DNA of 43,746 bases from positions 1-43,746 of the forward strand of contig JAFLDI010000001.1 in the NCBI GenBank assembly GCA_017302485.1, in the 5' to 3' direction. The position numbers and the translations under genes are program-made. The stretch is from Burkholderiales bacterium (lineage in GTDB: Bacteria; Pseudomonadota; Gammaproteobacteria; Burkholderiales; Burkholderiaceae_C). The notes below the pieces were generated by a model, which saw only the letters and a list, made by a program, of their open reading frames with translations, searched no databases and was not told the origin of the DNA. Shown here one piece after another: positions 16,461 to 41,959 of this stretch; the stretch's first letter is position 1, and each line of letters begins with the position of its first letter.

Positions 16461-17182
16461 ACACCCTCCACACCATCGCCTTCACCGTCTACCCCTACGT
16501 CTGCTTGGCGTTCTTCCTGATGGGCAGCCTGGCCCGCTTCGACCGCGACCAGTACACGTGGAAGAGCGACAGCTCCCAACTGCTGCGCGCCGGCCAGCTG
16601 CGCTGGGGCAGCAACCTGTTCCACGGCGGGATCCTGTTTCTTTTCTTCGGTCACCTGTTCGGCCAGCTGACCCCGCACGCGGTGTACGGCCTGGTCATGA
16701 CGTCCTCGCAGAAGCAGTTGCTGGCCGTGATCGCCGGCGGCGTGGCCGGCGGCCTGTGCTTCATCGGGCTGACGATGCTGTTGCACCGCCGGCTGTTCGA
16801 CCCGCGCATCCGGCTCACCAGCCACCGCACCGACATCGCGATCCTGGTGATCCTGTGGGTGCAGCTGGCCATCGGCTTGTCGACGCTGCCGTCTTCGCTG
16901 CACCACGCATCAGAACCCACCACCATGCTGCGCCTGGCCGAGTATCTGCAGGGCATCGTGCTGCTGCAGCCCAATGCGGCGCTGGTCGCGGGCGTGGAAT
17001 GGCATTTCCAGCTCCACATGCTGCTGGGCATGACGATCTTCCTGCTGTTCCCCTTCAGCCGCCTCGTTCACGTGTGGAGCGGCTTCGGCACCGTTGCCTA
17101 CCTGTTCCGCCCGTATCAGATGGTGCGTTCGCGCCGGCTCAACGTGCCGGCCCGCCAGAACCTGCCGCGCCGCGCCGGCTGA
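16457..17182 (+). CDS. narI: respiratory nitrate reductase gamma subunit (di-heme cytochrome b)
   Basis: RFDRDQYTWKSDSSQLL. Heme His in FHGG..FFGH, QLHM and FPFSRLVH. Confidence 0.97.
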   Translation: MNTLHTIAFTVYPYVCLAFFLMGSLARFDRDQYTWKSDSSQLLRAGQLRWGSNLFHGGILFLFFGHLFGQLTPHAVYGLVMTSSQKQLLAVIAGGVAGGLCFIGLTMLLHRRLFDPRIRLTSHRTDIAILVILWVQLAIGLSTLPSSLHHASEPTTMLRLAEYLQGIVLLQPNAALVAGVEWHFQLHMLLGMTIFLLFPFSRLVHVWSGFGTVAYLFRPYQMVRSRRLNVPARQNLPRRAG

Positions 17183-17212
17183 GCGTGTGGCCCATCGACA
17201 CAGGAGTACGCC

Positions 17213-17992
17213 ATGGATGCATCGGTTTCCGGTCTCGCGCAGGTCAACGGCGTGGTGCTGGCCTATCCCAACGAGCAGTTGACGGCCGAGGCCCTGCGCC
17301 AGCGCGCTTGCGCCGAACTGCTTCGGCAGGCGGCCATTCGCGCCGGGCTGCTGGCCGAGGACGATCCGCTCCCGCTGGGAGGTGCAATGACCGAATCGGC
17401 CAGTGCGGCCATTGAACGGCTGCTGGACCGAGAACTCCACCTGCCCGAGCCGACGGAAGAAGCCCTGCGCCGCCACAACGCGGCTCAGCGGGGGCGCTAC
17501 ACGGTCGGGGAGCGGGTGCTGATGCGCCACATCCTGTTCGCTGTCACGCCGGGCGTGGATGTGAATGCCCTTCGGCAGCGCGCCGAGGCTTGCCTGCTGG
17601 ACGTGCGCTGCGCGACGCCCGACAGCGAGGATCGCTTTGCGACCGCCGCGAGATCCACCTCCAACTGCCCCAGCGGGGCCGAGGGCGGCAACCTGGGCTG
17701 GTTGACCAGCCCCGAGTGCGCGCCCGAACTGGCCGGCGAGATCTTCGGCAAGCCCGAGATCGGCGTGCTGCCGCGGCTGGTGCACAGCCGCTTCGGGTTG
17801 CATGTCGTCGAGGTGCTGGCGCGCGAACCCGGGGTCGAGCCGCCGTTCGAGGCGGTGAAGTCCGCGGTGGCTCAGGCCTTGCGACAGCAGGCCTTTGCGA
17901 CCGCGCTTCGCCAGTACCTGCAAATGCTCGCGGCCGGGGCGACGCTGGTGGGTGTCGACCTGGACGCCGCCACGTCGCCGCTGGTGCAGTAG
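17213..17992 (+). CDS. PpiC/parvulin-type peptidylprolyl isomerase (NifM-like, nar-associated)
   Basis: RHILF, SNCPSGAEGGNLGW and SRFGLHVV parvulin motifs. Lies directly after narI. Confidence 0.88.
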   Translation: MDASVSGLAQVNGVVLAYPNEQLTAEALRQRACAELLRQAAIRAGLLAEDDPLPLGGAMTESASAAIERLLDRELHLPEPTEEALRRHNAAQRGRYTVGERVLMRHILFAVTPGVDVNALRQRAEACLLDVRCATPDSEDRFATAARSTSNCPSGAEGGNLGWLTSPECAPELAGEIFGKPEIGVLPRLVHSRFGLHVVEVLAREPGVEPPFEAVKSAVAQALRQQAFATALRQYLQMLAAGATLVGVDLDAATSPLVQ

Positions 17993-18006
17993 CCGGAGGA
18001 CCGAGC

Positions 18007-18339
18007 ATGGCGCACCGGCATGCGTCCTCCGGGGAGATCGTCGAGCTGAAGGCGCTGGGCGATGCGCTGGAGCAGCACGTCACCCACGCGCTGATCAAGT
18101 CCGCTCAGCTGGAACTGGTCAGGCTCGTGCTTCCCGCCGGCAAGGCGCTTCGCGAGCACCGTGTCGCAGGGGAGATCACCGTGCTCTGCGTGGAAGGGGT
18201 GATCGACATCCGTGTCAACGGCAGCGACCGGCGGCTGGCCTCAGGCCAGCTCATTCACCTGGGTGCCGGCGAGCCGCACGCCGTGCGCGCGGTGACGAAT
18301 GCGTCCGCGCTTCTGACGATCTGCCTGGTGGCGCCGTAA
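18007..18339 (+). CDS. cupin domain protein
   Basis: EHRVAGEITVLCVEG...GEPHAV cupin motifs. GGAGG RBS. Confidence 0.8.
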   Translation: MAHRHASSGEIVELKALGDALEQHVTHALIKSAQLELVRLVLPAGKALREHRVAGEITVLCVEGVIDIRVNGSDRRLASGQLIHLGAGEPHAVRAVTNASALLTICLVAP

Positions 18340-18359
18340 GGGTCAGTCCGGCAGTGCCT

Positions 18360-18764
18360 TCACCCCAGCTGCACCGCGCGGCCCTGGCGATCGAAGGGGA
18401 TCATCCCGCCCAGGCCACCGGCCTTCACGGATTCGACCATGCCCTGCAAGGCGCTGTCGATCTGGCTGCTGCCAGGCGGCTGCTGTCCTGTGCCGGGCAG
18501 CGCGGCCGCGAAGACCAGCACCCACGGTTGACCCATTGCGGCGGCCTCTTCGCAAAGGGCTGCGAAGTCCGCCAACTCGGCGGGATCCTTGTCCACACAC
18601 ATCAAGGGCGACAGTTCCCCGGACTCGCCGGCTTCGAAACTCCGGCGTTGGTCTGGGGTGGCGTCCGCCGGAAGGCTGGCCCCGGCAAACACCAGCAGCA
18701 ATCGCTGCGCTTCGGGCTGATGCCGCGCCGCGGCCAGCAGGTCGTTGAAATGGCTGATGCTCAT
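18360..18764 (-). CDS. conserved hypothetical protein
   Basis: MSISHFNDLLAAARHQPEAQRLLLVFA...LSPLMCVDK. I recall this family near anaerobiosis genes, often mislabelled as a ribonucleotide reductase subunit. At 134 aa it is too short for that. Confidence 0.65.
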   Translation of the reverse strand: MSISHFNDLLAAARHQPEAQRLLLVFAGASLPADATPDQRRSFEAGESGELSPLMCVDKDPAELADFAALCEEAAAMGQPWVLVFAAALPGTGQQPPGSSQIDSALQGMVESVKAGGLGGMIPFDRQGRAVQLG

Positions 18765-18792
18765 GGTCGCGAGCTTATCCCCATCCCGGACC

Positions 18793-19212
18793 GTGTCTGA
18801 ACTGCTGCCCTGGTACCCGCATATCAAAATGGCCCACATCTCGCTGGTCGTGGCCAGCGGCATGTTGTTCGCCTGGCGCGGCGCGATGGTCCTGGCTGGG
18901 CACGCCTGGGTCATGGGTCAGCGCTGGCGGGTGCTCAGCTACGTCATCGACACGGGGTTGCTGGTCGCGGGCGTCACGCTGTGGGCCACGCTCTCACTGA
19001 ATCCGTTGATGCAGCACTGGCTGGCGGCCAAGCTCTGGCTCTTGCTTGTGTACGTGGTCCTCGGCTCGATGGCGCTCAAGCGCGCGCGGTCGCCCGTCGT
19101 CCGGCAGACCTGCTTTGTGGCCGCTCTGGCGGTCTACGGTTTCATGGCGTCCGTTGCATACATTCACGATCCGCTGGGGCTGCTTCTGCCCTGGGTGTCC
19201 CATGGCGGCTGA
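18793..19212 (+). CDS. SirB2 family membrane protein
   Basis: YPHIKMAH...SGMLFAWRG, SYVIDTGLL.AG and WLAAKL...YVVLGSMALKR motifs. GTG start chosen at 18793. Confidence 0.8.
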   Translation: MSELLPWYPHIKMAHISLVVASGMLFAWRGAMVLAGHAWVMGQRWRVLSYVIDTGLLVAGVTLWATLSLNPLMQHWLAAKLWLLLVYVVLGSMALKRARSPVVRQTCFVAALAVYGFMASVAYIHDPLGLLLPWVSHGG

Positions 19213-32192: not shown

Positions 32193-32339
32193 ACTATACT
32201 CCGATTGAGACATACCCACTGCTGTATCGAGAAGTGCACGTCGACCGCCGCTGCGCGACACTGGCGGCATGCACCTGTCGGCGCGGCAGGCGGGACTGTC
32301 TTCCGGCCATTTCGGCCACAACGACACGGAAGGTCTGAG

Positions 32340-32750
32340 ATTTACGGATTCACCACCACGCTCACGGGCCTGTCCTTCGACGACGCCCTGGCCAAGACCA
32401 CGGCGGCACTCAAGGCCGAAGGGTTCGGCGTGCTGAGCGACATCGATGTCCAGCGCGCGATGAAGGAGAAGCTGGGCGCCGACATGCTGCCCTACCGCAT
32501 CCTGGGCGCCTGCAATCCGCCGCTGGCACACCAGGCCTTGCAGGCCGAGCCGGACATCGGTCTGCTGCTGCCGTGCAATGTGATCGTCCGCGAGGAGGCC
32601 CCCGGCCGCGTCGTGGTCGGCTTCCTGGATCCGCAGACCATGGTCGGTCTGGTCGGCAAGCCGGGTATGAAGACGGTCGCGGACGATGCGGAAAGCCGGC
32701 TGCGCCGCGTCTGCGAAGCCCTGGGTGGCGGACCCCCGTTGGCGGTCTGA
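32340..32750 (+). CDS. DUF302 domain protein, apparent ATT start codon
   Basis: EGFGVLSDIDV, YRILGACNP and IGLLLPCNV motifs. GGAAGG-6nt-ATT precedes YGFTTTL, with no in-frame ATG/GTG/TTG nearby. Confidence 0.8.
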   Translation: MYGFTTTLTGLSFDDALAKTTAALKAEGFGVLSDIDVQRAMKEKLGADMLPYRILGACNPPLAHQALQAEPDIGLLLPCNVIVREEAPGRVVVGFLDPQTMVGLVGKPGMKTVADDAESRLRRVCEALGGGPPLAV

Positions 32751-32802
32751 GACGCGCGCTGCCGCTCGGATTCGATCGGAACTGTCGCGGTAACCTCGGC
32801 TG

Positions 32803-33849
32803 GTGCAGCCCAAGGACATCGTCATCGTCACGCCCGCGTTGGCTGACGCGAACAACGGCAACTGGCAGACGGCCCGACGCTGGGCCCGCATGCTGCGCGG
32901 TTCGTACAACGTTCGCCTGGCGTCGGACTGGCATGGCGGCGACGAAGCGCTCATGATCGCGTTGCACGCCCGCCGTTCCGCCTCTTCGGTGACCGCCTGG
33001 CGGGCGCGCCGTGCCCACTGTCCGATGATCGTGGCGCTGACCGGCACTGACCTGTACCGCGACATCGCCACTGACGAGACTGCACGGTCATCGCTGGAGG
33101 CAGCCGACCGACTGATCGTCCTGAACGAACTGGGCATCCGATCCTTGCCGCAGGCCCTTCGGGCGAAGGCGCGGGTGATCCTGCAGTCGTGCCCAGCCTG
33201 GCGGCGGCTCGACAAGACATCGAAGCACCTGCGCGCGGTCATGGTCGGCCACCTGCGCGAGGAGAAGTCGCCAGGGACGTACTTCGAAGCGGCGCGGACG
33301 CTGGCATCGCGTCCCGAGATCCTGCTCGACCATGTCGGCGCGGCGTTGGGTCCGCATTTGGGTCTCGAAGCTGCGGAGTTGATGCGGGCCTGCCTCCAGT
33401 ACCGCTGGCTCGGCGGCCTGCCACACGCGAGTGCGCGCCGGAGAATCCAGGGCGCGCATGTGCTGGTCCATCCCAGCCGCATGGAGGGCGGCGCGCACGT
33501 GGTCATCGAGGCCGTTCGCAGCGGCACGCCCGTGCTGGCCTCTCGCATCGATGGGAACGTGGGCCTGCTCGGTGAAGACTACGCGGGCTACTTCCCGGTG
33601 GGCGATGCCGCCGGCCTCTCCACCTTGCTGCAGCGGGTTCGGGACGAACCTGCGTTGCTGACCCGGCTCCAGGAACAGTGCGCGGAGCGTGCCGCGCTTT
33701 TCGATCCGGCGCGCGAGGCCGACTCCTTGCGCGGCGTTGTTCGCGAGCTCATGGATGGCACTGAGGTGCGGACCGACCGGGAGCAGCCGGGAAACAGACC
33801 TGTCGCCCTCGGGAGACGCTCGCCCAAGGCTGCGGGATCGTTGCCATGA
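32803..33849 (+). CDS. senB: SenB-type selenosugar synthase (GT-B glycosyltransferase, TIGR04348-like)
   Basis: IVTPALADANNGNWQTARRW, IALHARRS, LTGTDLYRD, VGHLREEKSP, SRMEGGAHV and GLLGEDYAGYF motifs are characteristic of SenB as I recall it. Confidence 0.85.
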   Translation: MQPKDIVIVTPALADANNGNWQTARRWARMLRGSYNVRLASDWHGGDEALMIALHARRSASSVTAWRARRAHCPMIVALTGTDLYRDIATDETARSSLEAADRLIVLNELGIRSLPQALRAKARVILQSCPAWRRLDKTSKHLRAVMVGHLREEKSPGTYFEAARTLASRPEILLDHVGAALGPHLGLEAAELMRACLQYRWLGGLPHASARRRIQGAHVLVHPSRMEGGAHVVIEAVRSGTPVLASRIDGNVGLLGEDYAGYFPVGDAAGLSTLLQRVRDEPALLTRLQEQCAERAALFDPAREADSLRGVVRELMDGTEVRTDREQPGNRPVALGRRSPKAAGSLP

Positions 33850-34469
33850 CGGGGTCCCGTCACCCGAGCTTTCCGTTGGCGCTGCTGCCGTGCCTCTCCG
33901 GACTGGAACTGCAGCCGGCGCAGTGGCTGTTCCGGGCGGGCACGCCACCCCGCTACATCCACTTCATCGAAGAGGGCGCCGTTCGCCTGGTGCGGCATGG
34001 CCGCCAGGGCGAGGAGGTGGTGCTCCACGATGCCCGTCCGGGCGAGCTTCTGGCGGAGGCTTCGCTGGACAGCTTGCGCTACCACTGCGACGTGGTTGCC
34101 TCTGAAGCCAGCGTCGTCCTGCGCGTCGCCAAGGCCGACTTCCAGCGGCTGCTGACCGACGACGCGGCGTTCGAGCGCACCTGGATCGCCCTGCTTGGAG
34201 CGCAGCTGCGCACGGCACGAACGCGCATCGAGCGGCTGTCGCTGCGCAGCGCCGAAGAACGCATCCGGCACCTCCTGCTCTCCGAAGGCCGCGGTCCGGG
34301 CTGCGAGCTGGTGGTCGCCGGCACCCTCAAGGATCTGGCGCGGCAACTGGGACTGACCCACGAATCGCTGTACCGGACGCTGGCGCGGATGCAGAAGGAT
34401 GGTGTCATCGACCGCCGGGGCCTGCGGCTGCGACTGACGCCGGGCGGGGCCTCGAAGCGTATGATTTGA
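33846..34469 (+). CDS. Crp/Fnr family transcriptional regulator
   Basis: cNMP-like EEGAVRLVR...GELLAEASL domain and C-terminal HTH LKDLARQLGLTHESLYRTL. No FNR N-terminal Cys cluster. ATGA overlap with senB. Confidence 0.88.
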   Translation: MTGSRHPSFPLALLPCLSGLELQPAQWLFRAGTPPRYIHFIEEGAVRLVRHGRQGEEVVLHDARPGELLAEASLDSLRYHCDVVASEASVVLRVAKADFQRLLTDDAAFERTWIALLGAQLRTARTRIERLSLRSAEERIRHLLLSEGRGPGCELVVAGTLKDLARQLGLTHESLYRTLARMQKDGVIDRRGLRLRLTPGGASKRMI

Positions 34470-34475
34470 ATCATA
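34460..34475. promoter_or_regulatory. Crp/Fnr-type palindrome TATGAT-TTGA-ATCATA
   Basis: Perfect 6-4-6 inverted repeat overlapping the regulator's stop codon, centred 42.5 nt before ATG 34510. Confidence 0.65.
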
Positions 34476-34509
34476 TGCCTTGCTGGCGCAGCGACTGCAA
34501 GATGCCGGC

Positions 34510-35031
34510 ATGAGTCGTCGGAAGTCCGTACCCTTGAAGCTCCTGTCCGCCGCAGCGGTAGCGATCCATGCCGGCTGCGCAGCACCCTCCGGTGATCATG
34601 TGGCCCATGTCCATCCGTCGAGCCCCGCTGCCCCCGTCGGCATGGCGCACTCGCAGGCCGACGACCCGCGCGTGATGGTGCGCTTCCCCGACATGCTGCG
34701 GGCACACACCCTGGCCAACATGCGCGATCACCTGCTCGCGCTGGCGGAGATCCAGGACCAGCTGGCACGCGGCGCCTTTGACAAGGCCAGCGACATCGCC
34801 GAACAGCGGCTGGGCATGTCGTCGCTCGGCCTTCACGGCGCACACGACGTGGCGCAGTTCATGCCCCAGGGCATGCAGGCGGCCGGCACGGCGATGCACC
34901 GCAGCGCGAGCCAGTTCGCCATCGTGGCCAAGGACGCCTCCGTGACCGGTGACCTCAAGGGCAGCGTCGCGGCACTGGCCAGGGTGACGCAGACCTGCGT
35001 GGCTTGCCACGCGGCCTATCGCATCCAGTAG
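34510..35031 (+). CDS. class II (c'-like) cytochrome c, possibly a lipoprotein
   Basis: Single C-terminal heme motif TCVACHAAYR in a helical protein. N-terminal signal with lipobox-like HAG-C. Confidence 0.8.
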   Translation: MSRRKSVPLKLLSAAAVAIHAGCAAPSGDHVAHVHPSSPAAPVGMAHSQADDPRVMVRFPDMLRAHTLANMRDHLLALAEIQDQLARGAFDKASDIAEQRLGMSSLGLHGAHDVAQFMPQGMQAAGTAMHRSASQFAIVAKDASVTGDLKGSVAALARVTQTCVACHAAYRIQ

Positions 35032-35082
35032 CCCCGGTTCACCTTGCGTGGCGGGGTCTTCGTGTGCCCGCCGCGGCGCGGG

Positions 35083-36225
35083 TCACTGCCTGGCGACTCG
35101 ACGCCAGGCCGCAAAGAGCGCATCGGTGGCCTCGTCGATGTCTGCCACCTGCGAGGTGCGACCGACAGACAGACGCACGGCGCCGCTGGCTCGTGCCGCG
35201 TCGATGCCCATCGCAGCCAGCACGCCGCTGACCGCATCATGCTCGGAGTGGCAGGCGGATCCCACCGATGCGGCCACCGTGTCGGCGACCTCGGCCAGCA
35301 GGCCGCGCCCGCTAACACCGGGGAAGGAGACATGCAGCGTATTGGGCAGCCGCAGTTCCGGATGCCCGTTGAGCTGCAAGCCCGAGACACCGTCTGCCAG
35401 CCGTGCATGCAAGCGTTCGCGCAGCGCTCGCAGTCGATCCGTCAGCGCTGGCAGCTCGGCTGAAGCCAGCGCCGCAGCCGCCCCGAGCGCGACGATCAGG
35501 GCCACGTTCTCCGTGCCGGGGCGCAGGCCCTGTTCCTGATCGGCGCCGTGGAGGATCGATCGGATCGGCGTTCCGGTGCGCACGTACAAGGCACCGATGC
35601 CCTTGGGCGCGCTGAACTTGTGCCCGGCCATCGTCAGCAGGTCCACGCCGAGAGCGCCGACGTTCACCGGCAGCTTGCCTACCGACTGCGCGGCATCGGT
35701 GTGCAGCAGGATCCCGCGCGGGCGCGTGATCGCCGAGATGTCGGCGATCGGCTGCAACGTGCCCACCTCGTTGTTGGCGTGCATCACCGAGACCAGCGCC
35801 GTGTCAGGGCGAAGGGCCCGCTCGACCGCCGCCGCGGAAACCCTTCCGTGCGCGTCGACAGGGACGACCGACACCTCCCAACCATGATCCCGCAACGCCG
35901 CCGCCGGTGCCGCGACCGCCGGGTGCTCGATCGCGCTGATCACGAGGTGCCGCCGAGATGGCCCGATGGCACGCGCCACGCCCAGCAGCGCCAGGTTGTT
36001 CGCTTCGGTCGCGCAGCCGGTGAAGACGATTTCCCCCGTCTGCGCGCCGACCAGCGTGGCAACCTGTTTGCGCGCGCGGCTCACGGCCTGGGCTGCCCGG
36101 CGACCGAAGGCATGGCTGCTCGACGGGTTGCCGAACTGCGATCGCAGCCACGGCGCCATGGCGTCGAAGACTTCCGGCGCGACTGGCGTGGTGGCGTTGT
36201 GGTCGAGGTAGATCGGGTCGGTCAT
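35083..36225 (-). CDS. cysteine desulfurase / selenocysteine lyase family (group I NifS-like, PLP)
   Basis: IYLDHNATTP, GNPSS, EHPAV, NNEVG, HTDAAQ, AGHKF (PLP Lys), RPGTEN and SVGSACHS (catalytic Cys). Confidence 0.93.
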   Translation of the reverse strand: MTDPIYLDHNATTPVAPEVFDAMAPWLRSQFGNPSSSHAFGRRAAQAVSRARKQVATLVGAQTGEIVFTGCATEANNLALLGVARAIGPSRRHLVISAIEHPAVAAPAAALRDHGWEVSVVPVDAHGRVSAAAVERALRPDTALVSVMHANNEVGTLQPIADISAITRPRGILLHTDAAQSVGKLPVNVGALGVDLLTMAGHKFSAPKGIGALYVRTGTPIRSILHGADQEQGLRPGTENVALIVALGAAAALASAELPALTDRLRALRERLHARLADGVSGLQLNGHPELRLPNTLHVSFPGVSGRGLLAEVADTVAASVGSACHSEHDAVSGVLAAMGIDAARASGAVRLSVGRTSQVADIDEATDALFAAWRRVARQ

Positions 36226-36260
36226 GGCGCGATTCGACAGGCGATGATCATTTGCCGGTT

Positions 36261-36280
36261 ATTCTAAAGGCCGTTAGAAT
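36261..36280. promoter_or_regulatory. candidate ArsR-family operator ATTCTAA-N6-TTAGAAT
   Basis: Perfect 7-bp inverted repeat in the 62-bp divergent gap between the desulfurase and the ArsR-rhodanese gene. Confidence 0.75.
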
Positions 36281-36287
36281 GTAGTTC

Positions 36288-36950
36288 ATGGACAACCGCA
36301 CCCTCAAAGATCTCTTGTACGAACAGGTCGCCCGGGTCGGCAAGGCCCTGGCCAGCCCGAAGCGGCTCGAAATCCTGGAGATGCTGGCGCAGGGCGAGAA
36401 AGCCGTCGAGACGATCGCCGGCGAGGTCGGCATCGACGTCAAGCTGGCCAGTGCCCACCTGAAGGCGCTGAAGGAAGCGCGACTCGTGCAGGTGAAGCGC
36501 GACGGCAAGCGCATGATCTACCGGCTCAGCGGCGCCGATGTCGCCCAGCTTGGCGTTACGCTGCGCCAGGTGGCCGAGGAACACCTGGTCGAACTGCGGC
36601 TGGCCTTGCAGCAGATGATGGCCGAGCCGGAGCAACTGGCGAAGGTGGGCCGCAAGGAACTGCTGGCGCAGGCCAAGCGCGGCGAAGTCGTGGTGCTCGA
36701 CGTGCGTCCACCCGAGGAGTTCGACACCGCACACCTTCCCTATGCCCGTTCGGTGCCACTACCCGAACTGGCGCAGCGCCTGGCCGAGCTGCCGCGCGAC
36801 GTGGAGATCGTCGCCTACTGCCGCGGTCCGTTCTGCCTGATGTCCGACGAGGCCGTGAAGCTGCTGCGCGAGCACGGCTACCGCGCCCGCAAGACCTTCG
36901 ATGGCGTGAGCGAATGGCAGGCCGCAGGGCTGCCTGTGACCCGGCGCTGA
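36288..36950 (+). CDS. ArsR/SmtB HTH - rhodanese fusion regulator
   Basis: KALASPKRLEILEML..GEK...ASAHLKAL, followed by VLDVRP.EEF..AHLP and AYCRGPFC rhodanese motifs. Confidence 0.92.
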   Translation: MDNRTLKDLLYEQVARVGKALASPKRLEILEMLAQGEKAVETIAGEVGIDVKLASAHLKALKEARLVQVKRDGKRMIYRLSGADVAQLGVTLRQVAEEHLVELRLALQQMMAEPEQLAKVGRKELLAQAKRGEVVVLDVRPPEEFDTAHLPYARSVPLPELAQRLAELPRDVEIVAYCRGPFCLMSDEAVKLLREHGYRARKTFDGVSEWQAAGLPVTRR

Positions 36951-36978
36951 GCACGAAGGCCCACCCTGGAGGATCGCC

Positions 36979-37332
36979 ATGACCTTCTCCCTGTTCATCG
37001 TCAACGACGCACCCTACGGCAATGAGCGGGCGTACAACGCGCTGCGCCTGGCCGGCGCGCTGGCTTCGCGTGACGGCCAGGCCGCCGTGCGCCTGTTCCT
37101 GATGGCGGATGCGGTCGGCTGCGCCAAGAGCGGGCAGAAGGTGCCCGAGGGCTACTACAACGTGCAGATCATGCTCGGCAAGGTGGCGCGCAAGGGCGAG
37201 GTCGGCTTGTGCAGCACCTGTATGGACGCCCGTGGCCTGCGTGACGACGAACTGGTCGAAGGGGCCAAGCGCGGCACCCTGGCGCAACTGGCGGACTGGA
37301 CGGCCGAGGCCGACAAGGTCCTGGTGTTCTAA
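36979..37332 (+). CDS. DsrE/YchN-like sulfur relay protein
   Basis: PYGNERAYNALRLA, VRLFLMADAV, LCSTCMDARGL and ADKVLVF motifs. Confidence 0.9.
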   Translation: MTFSLFIVNDAPYGNERAYNALRLAGALASRDGQAAVRLFLMADAVGCAKSGQKVPEGYYNVQIMLGKVARKGEVGLCSTCMDARGLRDDELVEGAKRGTLAQLADWTAEADKVLVF

Positions 37333-37350
37333 GTCCCGGCGCTCGCGTCC

Positions 37351-38424
37351 ATGATTCCCGAACTCGGTGTCATCGAGGGCTACTTCGGCCGACCGTGGGC
37401 GCACGAGGACCGCAAGCAGGTTCTGACGCGGCTGCGTGAGATGGGTTACGCCTGGTTCCACTACGCACCCAAGGCCGACGCCTGGCTGCGGCGGCGCTGG
37501 CGCGAGCGGCACCCGGATGCGGTGCTCGCTGAACTGGCCGATCTGTCGGCGCATTGCCGCGGCCTCGGGATGCGTTTTGGCGTGGGCCTGAGCCCCTACG
37601 AGCTCTACCGCGACTTCACCGGCGATGCACAGCGTGCCTTCGTCGACAAGGTGCGGTCGCTCGGCGCGATCGGCATCGACGACCTCGCGATCCTCTTCGA
37701 CGACACGCGCGGGGATGTGCCAGACCTGGCGGCGCGCGAAGCCGAGATCGTCCACGCGGCAATCGCGAACACCCGCGCAAGCCGGGTGCTGATGTGCCCG
37801 ACCTACTACTCCGACGACCGGATGCTCGATGTCGTGTTCGGTGAGCGCCCAAAGGGCTACCTGCAGGACCTGGGGCGCCGGCTCGATGCCGAGGTCGGTG
37901 TGTATTGGACCGGAGAGGAGATCTGCGCCCGCGAGTTCAGCCCGGGGCACCTCACGCGCGTGGCCGAGGCGCTCGGTCGCAAGCCCACGCTCTGGGACAA
38001 CTACCCGGTCAACGATGGGCCACGGATGTCGCGCTTCCTGCACCTGCGCGGCTTCACGGGCCGGCGCCACACCATCGCCGGCCACGTCGCGGGCCATGCC
38101 ATCAACCCGGCCCTGCAGGCGCACCTGAGCCTGATCCCGGCAGCGACGCTGGTGGCCAGCTACAGCGAAGGCGACGGCTATGCCTACCTGAGCGCGTTTC
38201 GCGCAGCCGCGCGCTCGTTGGCCGGCGAACCGCTGGCCGCGATGCTGGACGAGGACCTGCATGCGCTGCAGGACCGAGGCTTCGACGCCCTGGGCGAACC
38301 GCCAGATGACGAACGTGCAAGGCTGCGGGCGCGTTACGCGGCGGTTCAGCACCCGATGGCCGCCGAGGTCGTTCGTTGGCTCGATGGCGCCGACACCGTG
38401 GATGGCTGGGTCGAGGACGCCTGA
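37351..38424 (+). CDS. GH84-like beta-N-acetylglucosaminidase (O-GlcNAcase catalytic domain only)
   Basis: GVIEGYFGRPW, YAPKAD, GLSP, AILFDD (catalytic Asp-Asp), CPTYY, YWTG and LWDNYPVND motifs. No signal peptide. Confidence 0.88.
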   Translation: MIPELGVIEGYFGRPWAHEDRKQVLTRLREMGYAWFHYAPKADAWLRRRWRERHPDAVLAELADLSAHCRGLGMRFGVGLSPYELYRDFTGDAQRAFVDKVRSLGAIGIDDLAILFDDTRGDVPDLAAREAEIVHAAIANTRASRVLMCPTYYSDDRMLDVVFGERPKGYLQDLGRRLDAEVGVYWTGEEICAREFSPGHLTRVAEALGRKPTLWDNYPVNDGPRMSRFLHLRGFTGRRHTIAGHVAGHAINPALQAHLSLIPAATLVASYSEGDGYAYLSAFRAAARSLAGEPLAAMLDEDLHALQDRGFDALGEPPDDERARLRARYAAVQHPMAAEVVRWLDGADTVDGWVEDA

Positions 38425-38448
38425 GCACCACACCCCAAGGAGACAAAC

Positions 38449-39204
38449 ATGTTCTTTCGCCAACGCGCCGCGGCGAACGCGACGTTGTCCTATCTCTTCG
38501 GCTGTGCCGGCCACCAGATGGCCATTGCCGTCGATGTCGTCGCCGGTGACGAGGGCTGGTTCGTCGCCGAGGCCGAGCAGGCTGGTGCGCGCCTGGTGCA
38601 CGTCATCGACACGCACGTGCATGCTGACCACTACTCGGGGGGCCTGGAACTGGCGCGGCGCACCGGCGCCGCCTACCACCTGCACGAGAGCAACCGGGGT
38701 CGCGTGGCCTTCGACTTCGCCGCCCTGTCTGACCGCCAGCGCATCGAGGCGGGCAACGTCATCGTCGATGTGATGCACACACCAGGGCACACGCCCGACA
38801 GCATCTGCCTCGTCGTGCGCGACCTGCGGCGCGGCGACGAGCCCTGGTTCGTCATCACCGGCGACACGCTGTTCGTCGGCGCGGTCGGTCGGCCTGATCT
38901 GGCCGGCCAGGAGCGCCAGATGGCCGCGCAGTTGCACGACACGCTGCATCAGAAGCTGCTGCGCTTGCCGCCCGAGCTCGAAATCTACCCTGGCCACCAG
39001 GCCGGCAGTGCCTGCGGGGCCGGACTGTCGGGCAAGCCGGCGTCGACGATCGGCTTCGAGACGCGCTTCAACCCGATGCTCGCCATGGACAAGGCAGCAT
39101 TCGTCGACGCGCTCACTGCCGAGTTCCCGCCGCCGCCGGCCGACATGGCGCGCATCGTCGAGGCTAATCTGCGCGGCGTGGTGCCCGCTGCCGCGCTGGT
39201 GTGA
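38449..39204 (+). CDS. MBL-fold protein, persulfide dioxygenase/glyoxalase II-like
   Basis: DTHVHADHYSG, HTPGHT, TGDTLFVG.VGRPDL and YPGH.AGSACG motifs. AGGAG RBS. Confidence 0.88.
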   Translation: MFFRQRAAANATLSYLFGCAGHQMAIAVDVVAGDEGWFVAEAEQAGARLVHVIDTHVHADHYSGGLELARRTGAAYHLHESNRGRVAFDFAALSDRQRIEAGNVIVDVMHTPGHTPDSICLVVRDLRRGDEPWFVITGDTLFVGAVGRPDLAGQERQMAAQLHDTLHQKLLRLPPELEIYPGHQAGSACGAGLSGKPASTIGFETRFNPMLAMDKAAFVDALTAEFPPPPADMARIVEANLRGVVPAAALV

Positions 39205-40487
39205 GGCCCATGCACTTCGGCATCCGCGTCAACCTGACCCAGTTCCTGCAGCAACTGCTGCAGGTGCTGCTGGTGGGAATGACCATCGGCCTGATGCGCA
39301 ACGTCGTGCCGGCGCTGGCCGAGGGCGAGTTCGGCGTGCCGCGTGGGTCGTTCATGCTGCTGGTCGCCTTCGTCGTCGCCTTCGGCTTCGTCAAGGGCGC
39401 AATGAACTTCATCGCCGGCCGCCTGGCCGAGCGCCTGGGCCGTAAGCGCGTGCTGCTGCTGGGGTGGCTGGTGGCACTGCCGATCCCAGCGCTCATCTAC
39501 TTCGCACCAAGCTGGTCCTGGGTGGTCTTAGCCACCGTGCTGCTGGGCATCAACCAGGGCCTGACCTGGTCGATGACGCAGACGGCCAAGCTCGACTTCA
39601 CGCGCGCCGACCAGCGCGGCCTGGTCATCGGGCTGAACGAGTTCTCGGGCTATGTGGGCGTGGCATTGGCCGGCGTGGCCACCGGCTACCTCGCGACGGC
39701 GCTCGGCCCGCGCGAAGGGCTGCTGTGGTTCGGCGCTGCGGTGATCGGGCTGGCGACGCTGCTGTCGTGGCTGGCTATCGCGGAGACGCTGCCCTGGGCG
39801 CGCGACGAGGTCAAACGTCATGCATCACCTTCAGCCACCGCGCTTCGCCCGCGCTACCCCAGTGGCGTGGGCGCGCAGCCCTCGACGCGGGAGATGTTCG
39901 CGCTGATGAGCTGGCGCGACCGGCGCATGGCGGCGCTGTGCCAGGCCGGTCTGGTGGAGAAGTTCGTCGACGCGCTGGTCTGGGCCTTCTGGCCGGTCTA
40001 CCTGCACCAGCGCGGCGTGGACCTTCCTGGCATCGGCTGGATCGTCGGCGTCTACGGTTTCACCTGGGGCGCGGCGCAGTTCTTCACCGGCAGGCTGTCG
40101 GACCGGCTGGGGCGCCACCTGCTCAACGCCTGGGGCATGTGGGTTTGCGGCGCTGGTGTCGCACTGATGCCGCTGGGTTCGGGCGCGGCGTGGTGGAGCG
40201 TGTCTGCCGCCGTCGCGGGCCTGGGCATGGCGATGCTGTACCCCAACCTCAGTGCCGCCGTCGCGGACATCGCGCATCCGAACTGGCGTGCCTCGGCCAT
40301 CGGCATCTACCGCTTCTGGCGTGACCTGGGCTACGGCATCGGGGCACTCGGGCTGGGGCTGGCCGCCGCTCTCGGCGGCCGGCTGGAAACGGCCTTCTGG
40401 TTCGTCGCCGTGGCGATGCTGGCTTCCGGTGCGGTGCTGTTCCGATGGGGCGAGGAGACGCACCCCCGGCTCAACCCTGCGACCTGA
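39201..40487 (+). CDS. MFS transporter
   Basis: About 12 TMs, with motif A-like GRLAERLGRKR and GRLSDRLGRH. Overlaps the MBL stop. The start could be 39201 or 39210. Confidence 0.9.
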   Translation: MRPMHFGIRVNLTQFLQQLLQVLLVGMTIGLMRNVVPALAEGEFGVPRGSFMLLVAFVVAFGFVKGAMNFIAGRLAERLGRKRVLLLGWLVALPIPALIYFAPSWSWVVLATVLLGINQGLTWSMTQTAKLDFTRADQRGLVIGLNEFSGYVGVALAGVATGYLATALGPREGLLWFGAAVIGLATLLSWLAIAETLPWARDEVKRHASPSATALRPRYPSGVGAQPSTREMFALMSWRDRRMAALCQAGLVEKFVDALVWAFWPVYLHQRGVDLPGIGWIVGVYGFTWGAAQFFTGRLSDRLGRHLLNAWGMWVCGAGVALMPLGSGAAWWSVSAAVAGLGMAMLYPNLSAAVADIAHPNWRASAIGIYRFWRDLGYGIGALGLGLAAALGGRLETAFWFVAVAMLASGAVLFRWGEETHPRLNPAT

Positions 40488-40514
40488 TTCGTTCCTCAAC
40501 TTCCGGAGACACGC

Positions 40515-40973
40515 GTGATCACACGCAGACTGACACTGACCCTCGCGCTCGCCGCAGCAGCCTTTGCACCGCTGGCGGCGCATGCGCAGGCCGACAAGGC
40601 CACCCTCAACGCGCTGGAAGGCTACTTCGACTTCGTCGATGCGAACACCGGCACGATCCTGCCCGAACAGATCCCGGCCGAGGACTACACGAAGTTCCAC
40701 GTGCTCGACGTGCGCGACGCAGGCCAGTTTGCCAAGGACCATATCCCCGGTGCCGTGAACATCGAATGGCGTCAGGTCTTCGCGCAGCGAGCGAAGCTGC
40801 CGAAGGACAAGACCATCCTCCTCTACTGCAACACCAGCTCCTTTGCCTCGCAGGTCGCGATGGCTCTGCGCATGGATGGCTTCGAGAACGTGCGCTTGCT
40901 GTACGGCGGCTACAACGAGTGGAAGGCGCGCGGCGGCTTGGATGCCCACGCGCGAGTGAGCAAGAAGAGCTGA
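40515..40973 (+). CDS. exported single-domain rhodanese
   Basis: Signal peptide TRRLTLTLALAAAAFAPLAAHA, then VLDVRD...HIPGAVNI, active loop YCNTSS and LYGGYNEW. Confidence 0.88.
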   Translation: MITRRLTLTLALAAAAFAPLAAHAQADKATLNALEGYFDFVDANTGTILPEQIPAEDYTKFHVLDVRDAGQFAKDHIPGAVNIEWRQVFAQRAKLPKDKTILLYCNTSSFASQVAMALRMDGFENVRLLYGGYNEWKARGGLDAHARVSKKS

Positions 40974-41095
40974 AGCTTGAGGGTCGTGTGCGCTCGTTCG
41001 CGTGACCCGGCCGACGCTTGCTGTGCATCGGCCGCGCAGCAGTGGCCGCACTCGCCGTGACGATCATGGCGATCTCGGCGGGTGGCACGCCGTCC

Positions 41096-41959
41096 ATGCC
41101 TTACCGCGGCACCGGGGCCGCCTTCGGCCTGGCGGTCTCCGTGGCGTTGCATGCGCTGCTGTTTGCCGTGGCGGCCGGACACCTGTCGATGCGCAAGCCA
41201 CATCGGCCGGCCGACGAACCGACGGTGATTCAGCTGAGCTTGTTGCCGCCGCCCGAAGCAGTCGTGCGCGAGGCGCCGACTCCGGCGCCTGCACCCGTGC
41301 CACCGGCTCTGCCCGTCCCGACCATCGCGGCACCGAAAGTCGTACCGGTGCCTCCGCCAGAGACGCCACGCCAACCCGCCACGATGGCGGCTCCTCCTGC
41401 GCCCACGGCCGAGGAGTGGGCCTTCGCCAGCCGGTACACGCTCAAGAACAGCAAGGCCTACCGCTATACCTGGGGGCAGCAAGTGCGTAGCATGATGGGC
41501 ACCGCCGTCGAAGGACCTGACCAGGGCATGGTGCGCTTCCGGGTGGAGATCGCTCCCGACGGTTCGCTGGCCAGCCTCGACACCGTGTGGTCCACGTCGC
41601 CTGTCGCTGAGCGACTGGCCCGCCAGGCCATCGCCAACATGCCGCGCTGGCCCGCCACGCCGACGGGGCGGCCCCTGGTCTTCGAGAAGACCATCTCGTT
41701 CACGCCGTTTGCGTCGGACGGTCCACCGCTCTATAAGGACGACTGCTTGCCCGACCCACCGGTGTTCAGCAACCCGTTTGCGTGGGACGGACAGTCAGTG
41801 CGTGAGCCCGTTGGCGCCAAGCCGACCGAGAAGCCGGATCCCCAGTCGCTGGAGGATTGCCTCAGGCAGTTGCCGCAGGACTCGATCGAAGCAGAGACCG
41901 CGCGCGACCAGCGCATGATGAAGCAGTGGGGCTGGGGGGCCAGCAGGCTGAGACGATGA
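41096..41959 (+). CDS. TonB/TolA-like membrane-anchored protein
   Basis: TM with SVALHAL (SxxxH), Pro-rich linker, then a TonB-C-like GMVRFRVEIAPDGSL domain. The start is uncertain (41018-41096). Confidence 0.65.
   Translation: MPYRGTGAAFGLAVSVALHALLFAVAAGHLSMRKPHRPADEPTVIQLSLLPPPEAVVREAPTPAPAPVPPALPVPTIAAPKVVPVPPPETPRQPATMAAPPAPTAEEWAFASRYTLKNSKAYRYTWGQQVRSMMGTAVEGPDQGMVRFRVEIAPDGSLASLDTVWSTSPVAERLARQAIANMPRWPATPTGRPLVFEKTISFTPFASDGPPLYKDDCLPDPPVFSNPFAWDGQSVREPVGAKPTEKPDPQSLEDCLRQLPQDSIEAETARDQRMMKQWGWGASRLRR

Follow-up and report, generated by a model that had tools for sequence, protein, structure and literature searches.

A stretch of 43,746 nucleotides from a Burkholderiales bacterium (contig JAFLDI010000001.1 of assembly GCA_017302485.1, hereafter the window) carries senB, a gene for a selenosugar synthase, next to an operon in which an ArsR-rhodanese fusion gene precedes a stand-alone gene for a GH84 beta-N-acetylglucosaminidase. 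The reading that we favor, with a probability of about 0.4, is that SenB, fed with selenophosphate by a host SelD, makes Se-linked N-acetylglucosamine (SeGlcNAc), and that the GH84 enzyme would act as a recycler of selenoglycosides. As far as gene positions tell, the link between senB and GH84 is through a common ArsR-rhodanese cassette and not as a fixed gene pair. The window is contig C1 of assembly G000, which is 80.8% complete and comprises 513 contigs; throughout, G with a number denotes a genome (G006 and G026 being the closest relatives of G000) and L with a number a compared locus. Relatives of the window genes carry the labels Aquabacterium, Rubrivivax, and Burkholderiales. Three transcription units are recognized: DUF302-senB-crp-cytochrome c' on the forward strand, nifS on the reverse strand, and arsR-rhodanese-dsrE-GH84-MBL-MFS-rhodanese on the forward strand (MBL, metallo-beta-lactamase; MFS, major facilitator superfamily). 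In profile searches, all genes of a preliminary description of this DNA were recovered where it had placed them and with the identities it had given them. The junctions DUF302-senB, senB-crp, cytochrome c'-nifS, nifS-arsR, and GH84-MBL are bridged by contigs from four studies, although no listed piece covers the whole stretch, and we therefore do not regard it as an assembly chimera; the run X1 is possibly the source sample.

The senB gene (32803..33849, + strand) encodes a GT-B enzyme that scores 447.5 bits on TIGR04348 (cut-off 300 bits) and matches SenB entries of the PDB at E values of about 1e-96 to 1e-99. The equivalents of N20, T23, H58, R61, T83, T85, D86, Q131, R155, K158, E231, H235, and E239 are all kept; among them, N20, T23, H58, R61, T83, T85, R155, K158, E231, and E239 are the UDP-sugar and selenophosphate residues listed in PMC10891094. 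The V157 position is occupied by Glu, as in 93 of 95 sequences, and none of the 91 positions that are near-invariant across 93 other SenBs has changed. In a FastTree phylogeny of the 95 sequences the window SenB is nested among canonical senABC copies. Profile score, structural matches, and catalytic residues thus bear out an intact SenB, and the reported lack of senA and selD in the window also stands, since C1 had no match when the whole genome was searched by tblastn with SenA and SelD. Remnants of senA or selD beside senB were sought with blastn (word size 7) and none was found. The motif TAACCT directly before the GTG start of senB (32790-32802) is common to the window, L103, the remnant in L025, and one canonical cluster, and may serve senB as a -10 element of its own, the transcript then being nearly leaderless. 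Further senB genes lacking a nearby senA or selD occur at L191:8958-9995 and L150:2532-3482.

We consider it very probable that selD exists in this organism, as indicated by selU, the counts in the genus, and a gap at contig edges. The preliminary description had called for a genome search for senA, selD, selAB, and selU, of which the last was found intact in G000 (349 bits), while no selD, selA, or selB orthologue and no intact senA appeared in the assembly, and ARAGORN labeled no tRNA-Sec in it. A selD-model match on C289 was discarded as HypE-like, lying among hyp genes. Of 32 other genomes of the genus, 29 have selD; among the 25 high-quality ones, 24 carry selU together with selD and the remaining one has neither. 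Around selU, G000 and G026 share 94-97% identity. The contigs C438 and C152 of G000 stop at genes that, in G006, flank a 12-kb block comprising alr, egtD, egtB, and selD; orthologues of the four were not found in the G000 assembly. As alanine racemase is normally essential, the most likely explanation for the missing block is an assembly gap at these two contig edges.

The preliminary description had instead proposed a persulfide relay, in which NifS, DsrE, and rhodanese would pass sulfide, persulfide, or selenide to SenB to give a thio- or seleno-GlcNAc serving as a low-molecular-weight thiol or detoxification product. This SelD-independent route now appears very improbable. It would agree with the lack of selD in the assembly, with a Hydrogenophaga plasmid (described below) in which the cassette is accompanied by a senA-like gene and senB and selD is absent over a distance of 12 kb, and with the catalytic loop of the NifS-like protein (ASVGSACHS), which is close to that of mammalian selenocysteine (Sec) lyase (the second and third PDB matches for the C-terminal 81 residues). 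However, the selenophosphate pocket of SenB is unchanged, senB lies outside the unit of the operator, and SenB of Variovorax paradoxus gave no product in vitro without SenC or ATP and none with sulfide (10.1101/2022.04.13.486033); these in vitro results, together with the selD implied by selU and the assembly gap, make the relay unlikely. The nifS gene itself (35083..36225, - strand; PF00266), divergent from arsR, codes for a group I NifS-like Cys/Sec desulfurase that scores 300 bits against cysteine desulfurases vs 238 bits against Sec lyases, the whole protein being IscS-like. Aligned to 3gzc and 3a9x, it keeps the His after the catalytic Cys (H389 of human Sec lyase, hSCL), a residue which alone gives no specificity according to a study of Sec-lyase specificity determinants (PMC3266270). 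The Sec-specificity Asp (hSCL Asp146) was not recovered under an inferred mapping of positions, in which a Pro follows the EH motif. As to the two rhodanese domains, one forms the sensor end of the ArsR repressor, the other is preceded by a signal-peptide-like N-terminus and looks exported, so that, from their sequences, neither seems to be a plain cytoplasmic donor for SenB.

It is likely, at somewhat better than even odds, that SenB is expressed and makes SeGlcNAc with no selenoneine synthase to use it. The locus has neither senA nor senC, and a search of the assembly recovered no intact SenA. The sole senA-like gene of G000 is split over C20:8402-8671 and C471:11868-12815 (L184 and L183), and its pieces score 204 and 43 bits vs a cut-off of 420 bits. 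It is devoid of the third His, the catalytic Tyr, and the Asn-Phe pair (equivalents of His171, Tyr363, and Asn395), which figure among the SenA catalytic residues His71/167/171, Tyr363, and Asn395 in PMC11237966. No intact senA was found in G006 or G026 either, the closest of five genomes searched with the senA-like protein, where EgtB and the divergent gene alone were recovered and senB is absent. A DinB match on C376 was rejected as SenA, since it reads as a GNAT-DinB-type protein. In G019 the senA-like copy is more decayed and diverges from selD, and no senB lies between the two (L267 and L268 are related loci of the senA-like gene), and this pattern suggests that senB has been lost from an ancestral senABC in the genus. 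If selD is present and senB expressed, SeGlcNAc would be left without a known sink; in the ovoselenol (ovs) system SeGlcNAc accumulates in an ovsA mutant, which lacks the downstream synthase (PMC11030361).

One alternative is that SenB serves selenoneine or a related selenoimidazole in trans, by way of an unassembled senA, the divergent senA-like gene, or EgtB, while GH84 would be irrelevant or would trim hercynyl-SeGlcNAc, an in vitro side product of SenA mentioned in 10.1101/2022.04.13.486033. The assembly is only 81% complete in its 513 contigs, the gap probably contains egtD and egtB, and a senA-like gene does exist and is 71% identical in G006. Moreover, senA and/or selD are adjacent to senB in 77 of its 80 nearest loci, and a SenA/EgtB-type match at E 1e-105 is found in 146 of 165 senB genomes of the family (the other 19 having a SenB with no strong SenA match at that value). 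We nevertheless hold this alternative to be unlikely, given that the senA-like pieces fall far below the cut-off and have lost the equivalents of His171, Tyr363, and Asn395, and that the closest relatives, which have no senB, showed EgtB and the divergent gene only.

The third unit has the layout of an ArsR-type sulfane-sulfur operon, in that an ArsR repressor gene is accompanied by persulfide dioxygenase (PDO), rhodanese, and carrier genes and its promoter is overlapped by a putative operator. A sigma-70-like promoter (36252..36280, + strand) overlaps a perfect 7-6-7 inverted repeat (36261-36280), the candidate ArsR operator for arsR and nifS. The repeat occurs once in the window (0.03 expected) and once in G000 at up to two mismatches; at this same tolerance it precedes 25 of 29 arsR-rhodanese loci of the family, and every match in the compared loci adjoins the start of arsR-rhodanese. 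Its position before arsR and nifS, and not before senB, would place GH84 probably under the ArsR-rhodanese repressor and the window senB probably not. The repressor gene (36288..36950, +) codes for an ArsR/SmtB-rhodanese fusion with a CRGPFC loop (NF033788 77 bits, cut-off 55 bits; PF00581, PF01022), whose Cys residues are confined to the rhodanese domain and which reaches only 48 bits on the BigR model (cut-off 155 bits). It is followed by dsrE (36979..37332, +; PF02635 78.5 bits), a sulfur carrier of the DsrE family with Cys78 and Cys81, by GH84, and by an MBL-fold gene for a PDO-like protein (38449..39204, +; PF00753), the top PDB matches of which are 3tp9 and 3r2u (the latter being presumably CstB-like), and then ETHE1-type and BpPRF entries. 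An MFS transporter gene (39201..40487, +; PF07690 144 bits) and a gene for a single-domain rhodanese (40515..40973, +; PF00581 73.5 bits), with one Cys, a signal-peptide-like N-terminus, and a likely periplasmic location, complete the operon.

The GH84 gene (37351..38424, +) encodes a protein of 357 residues with no signal-peptide-like N-terminus, belonging to a Burkholderiaceae clade. A PF07555 score of 184.8 bits, a TIM-barrel fold, and a conserved Asp-Asp site leave its assignment to GH84 well founded; the AF2 model (pLDDT 94) has as top Foldseek match the Thermobaculum terrenum O-GlcNAcase (TtOGA) 5DIY, at E 9e-24. By motif mapping, the catalytic pair D117/D118 and the GlcNAc contacts show no variation in 14 clade sequences and 71 from outside the clade, wherever these cover them; the catalytic residues and contacts named for human O-GlcNAcase (hOGA) in PMC10636738 are G67, K98, D174, D175, N280, D285, and N313. 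The clade is large, the best 120 clusters among the matches listed being all at least 77% identical, and dN/dS values of 0.14-0.25 denote purifying selection. Two changes fixed in the clade lie near the catalytic residues in sequence: Thr119 after the acid/base Asp (118 of 120 listed homologues, vs Met in 69 of 71 outsiders) and Arg157 (89 of 101 clade homologues with the motif, vs Pro in 65 of 71 outsiders). The changes beside the catalytic site count in favor of the preferred reading. A WVED-type tail is also a mark of the clade. In all 12 other clade loci with upstream sequence GH84 stands behind arsR, at 15-1587 bp and in three gene orders (of the 12, L023 and L190 share 99% identity). Genes for GlcNAc uptake or catabolism were not recognized next to GH84. 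Elsewhere, none of 112 order-wide genomes has GH84, no relatives of GH84 or SenB were found on viral contigs, and the seven plasmid GH84 records are all below 60% identity. Two clade loci also have a type III SQR-like gene (L026:7749-11062; L030:6850-11059 and 16974-18896), and in L030 selB lies 6 kb off.

If the favored reading is right, SenB would make SeGlcNAc from the selenophosphate of a host SelD whose gene has probably escaped assembly. The rhodanese Cys of the ArsR-rhodanese repressor would serve to sense sulfane sulfur or selenium, upon which nifS and the dsrE-GH84-PDO-MFS-rhodanese genes would be released. GH84 would then cleave a selenium-linked GlcNAc whose leaving group is good, for instance free SeGlcNAc, a mixed diselenide, or a selenosulfide, as well as hercynyl-SeGlcNAc in hosts with senA; the selenide released would go to the carriers of the operon and the GlcNAc to salvage. 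A further step, which we regard as possible but doubtful, is that the GH84 clade is a dedicated selenoglycoside hydrolase and that, with SenB and SelD, SeGlcNAc is a reversible selenium buffer, released to DsrE, NifS, PDO, and rhodanese when the ArsR-rhodanese repressor is triggered. Cleavage of Se-linked GlcNAc by GH84 is the weak step of this putative mechanism. O-GlcNAcase reportedly cleaves thioglycosides without acid catalysis (so the title of a 2005 paper by Macauley), a point that we count in favor; these were presumably aryl thioglycosides. Selenide or a selone would be a better leaving group than an alkyl thiolate.

Several observations weigh against the favored reading. As regards gene organization, the senB unit converges on nifS while GH84 belongs to the arsR operon, and the inverted repeat was never found at senB, either in the arsR-rhodanese loci of the family or in the compared loci. 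GH84 is present at none of the 80 nearest SenB loci (metagenomic loci, 24 of them with 5 kb on both sides), and senB at none of 71 distant GH84 loci, that is, loci outside the GH84 clade of the window. Among 400 genomes of the family, 165 have senB and three have GH84; all three of these have senB, linked to GH84 in one, and GH84 is absent from 162 of the 165. Within the genus, senB is found in four of 32 genomes and GH84 in one, never together. At L103, where the nearest senB orthologue (85% identity) lies directly before arsR, the cassette has lost dsrE, GH84, and most of the MBL gene. The GH84 clade, monophyletic with support 1.0 and on a long stem in a FastTree phylogeny, is nested among alphaproteobacterial GH84s, some of them beside nagA. 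Finally, human OGA and CpOGA do not remove Cys-S-GlcNAc (PMC10636738; 10.1101/2023.07.31.551258), and a review states that glycosidases cannot break Se-glycosides (PMC7558951).

The conserved writer/eraser gene pair of senB and GH84 that had been postulated is not sustained by these loci: besides the empty counts at the 80 and 71 loci, L103 lost GH84 and the orphan senB of L025 has decayed. The genome counts are more favorable, although they have to be read with care. Host genomes were searched for 50 of the 80 GH84 loci (nine of the clade and 41 distant), and senB was found in eight of the nine clade genomes vs five of the 41 distant ones, all five Marinobacter; the other 36 have no senB, which counts against the favored reading. 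Counting 13 other genomes of the GH84 clade, 11 have senB, vs 165 of 400 (41%) in the family, but the hosts are related sludge Burkholderiaceae and the 11 are not independent. An intact senB lies beside GH84 in two of the 13 other clade loci, both with the full senABC and probably representing one event. The sen genes have joined the GH84 cassette at two sites, as an orphan upstream (the window, L103, and the L025 remnant) and as a full senC-senB-senA downstream (L025, where senABC lies 1.6 kb beyond GH84, and G314).

The tie of sen genes to the ArsR-rhodanese cassette is better marked. Of 25 family genomes with both senB and ArsR-rhodanese, 24 gave positions, and in six of these the two lie within 12 kb, vs 0.17 expected; since three of the six belong to one genus, we count at least four linkage events. 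Five of the six genomes have no GH84, one more point against the favored reading, and co-occurrence at genome level alone is not significant (25 of 47, p 0.08). In L103 senB ends right at the operator, and at L139 senB and a SelD fusion lie against nifS-VTT-desaturase. The Hydrogenophaga plasmid pBPS33-1 (L262, NZ_CP044550.1, 57958-63969) carries a senA-like gene and senB behind arsR-MBL-MFS-rhodanese; neither selD nor GH84 was found within 12 kb of this cassette, which sits inside a Hg, Cu, Cr, and As resistance region.

The main alternative, which we rate as nearly as likely as the favored reading, is that the genes are unrelated cargo: the island would gather stress genes, GH84 would be a salvage hydrolase of O-linked GlcNAc inserted once behind the arsR promoter, and senB a stray piece of senABC drifting to loss. 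Since the GH84 clade is monophyletic, a single insertion would explain its place, and in G158 the slot between dsrE and the MBL gene holds an MFS gene instead. The orphan senB is reduced to a 98-codon remnant in L025, and L024 and L028 have no senB ahead of crp. When the window and L103 are compared, the dN/dS of senB is 0.41, vs 0.145 for arsR and MFS (Fisher p 0.0004), which would fit relaxed selection and also counts against the favored reading; split by lineage, the changes are 15 nonsynonymous and 23 synonymous in the window vs 18 and 6 in L103, which suggests that the relaxation is on the L103 side, a partition of little weight as the outgroups are saturated. Also in agreement with cargo, nagA-like genes occur in nine of 13 cassette genomes; as a test of a nutrient role nagA was set aside as not discriminating, with 12 of 41 distant GH84 genomes having it. 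A G314 contig, from another genus, holds a nar/NO-stress island with 76-87% collinearity to some 21 kb of the window (10.8-31.7 kb). The cassette and an antirestriction gene are found on this contig too, so that the island, which other genera share, is probably mobile. On the other hand, GH84 has stayed behind arsR through three rearrangements and dS of up to 0.8, under purifying selection and with no GlcNAc uptake or catabolic gene recognized beside it. The repeated linkage of sen genes to the cassette and the window SenB, unchanged at 91 near-invariant sites, likewise disagree with chance cargo.

Compared with known systems, the window SenB is of the same family as that of senABC of V. paradoxus by profile, structure-sequence match, and active site, with selenophosphate probably supplied by SelD; the window differs from senABC (10.1101/2022.04.13.486033; PMC10891094; PMC11237966) in having no senA or senC at the locus and no intact senA in the assembly, and in lying on an island beside a sulfur operon with GH84. 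The ovs cluster, composed of senBC, ovsA, and ovsM, offers a precedent in which senB feeds another consumer and may be chromosomally apart from it (PMC11030361), whereas in the window genome no intact non-heme-iron selenoxide synthase was found and the proposed consumer is a hydrolase. With TtOGA (5DIY) and OgOGA (2XSA, 7KHS) the window GH84 shares the TIM-barrel, the Asp-Asp pair, and the GlcNAc contacts, but it is about 25-29% identical to them in structural alignments, shorter, fixed in an ArsR-rhodanese operon, and distinguished by Thr119, Arg157, and the WVED-type tail. The operon resembles the ArsR-controlled reactive-sulfur operons (BigR, SqrR, and PigS, with PDO and rhodanese; PMC9774590) in its ArsR-family repressor, PDO-like enzyme, rhodanese, DsrE, and transporter, and departs from them in that the repressor is a rhodanese fusion with Cys in the rhodanese domain only and that a glycoside hydrolase is included.

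In the accessible portions of the literature cited here, bacterial selenosugars are intermediates to selenoneine and ovoselenol only, and no enzyme that breaks them is named. Our literature search, with most subscription papers outside its reach, found no prior description of a SeGlcNAc hydrolase, and among the matches listed there was none for GH84 with rhodanese or DsrE, selenosugar with GH84, selenoneine with rhodanese, or an ArsR-rhodanese fusion with selenite. If the favored reading holds, a Se-GlcNAc hydrolase would close the cycle and would be an unusual glycosidase, such bonds usually resisting glycosidases; selenosugars would be a bacterial end product with a turnover of their own and no selenoneine involved, and the case could bear on a turnover of selenosugars by GH84-type enzymes in animals. 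Two results stand either way: the repeated occurrence beside sen clusters of an ArsR-rhodanese operon with a defined putative operator, and the fixation of a GH84 clade in that operon.

Among the other genes of the senB unit, DUF302 (32328-32750 region, +) has a GGAAGG site before an ATT start at 32340, where contigs of related strains from three runs have ATG, so that a start-codon mutation is likely in the window genome. The gene for a Crp/Fnr-family regulator (33846..34469, +; PF00027, PF13545) overlaps the senB stop, and this senB-crp junction is common to the window and the decayed copy in L025. It is followed by a gene for a cytochrome c'-like protein (34480..35031, +) with a CxxCH motif (Cys173 and Cys176), whose PF01322 match (E 2e-4) is under its cut-off. 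The preceding part of the window (124-31558) is a nitrate-respiration and NO-stress block with nnrS, hemerythrin-domain genes, narK, narGHJI, narXL, Rrf2, a FixG-like gene, and a MacAB-like exporter. Beyond the operon, a gene for a TonB-C-like membrane protein (41018..41959, +) has a weak TIGR01352 match under the cut-off; such a protein often flanks the ArsR-rhodanese gene in many genera (L224, L225, L234, L235, and L237-L242).

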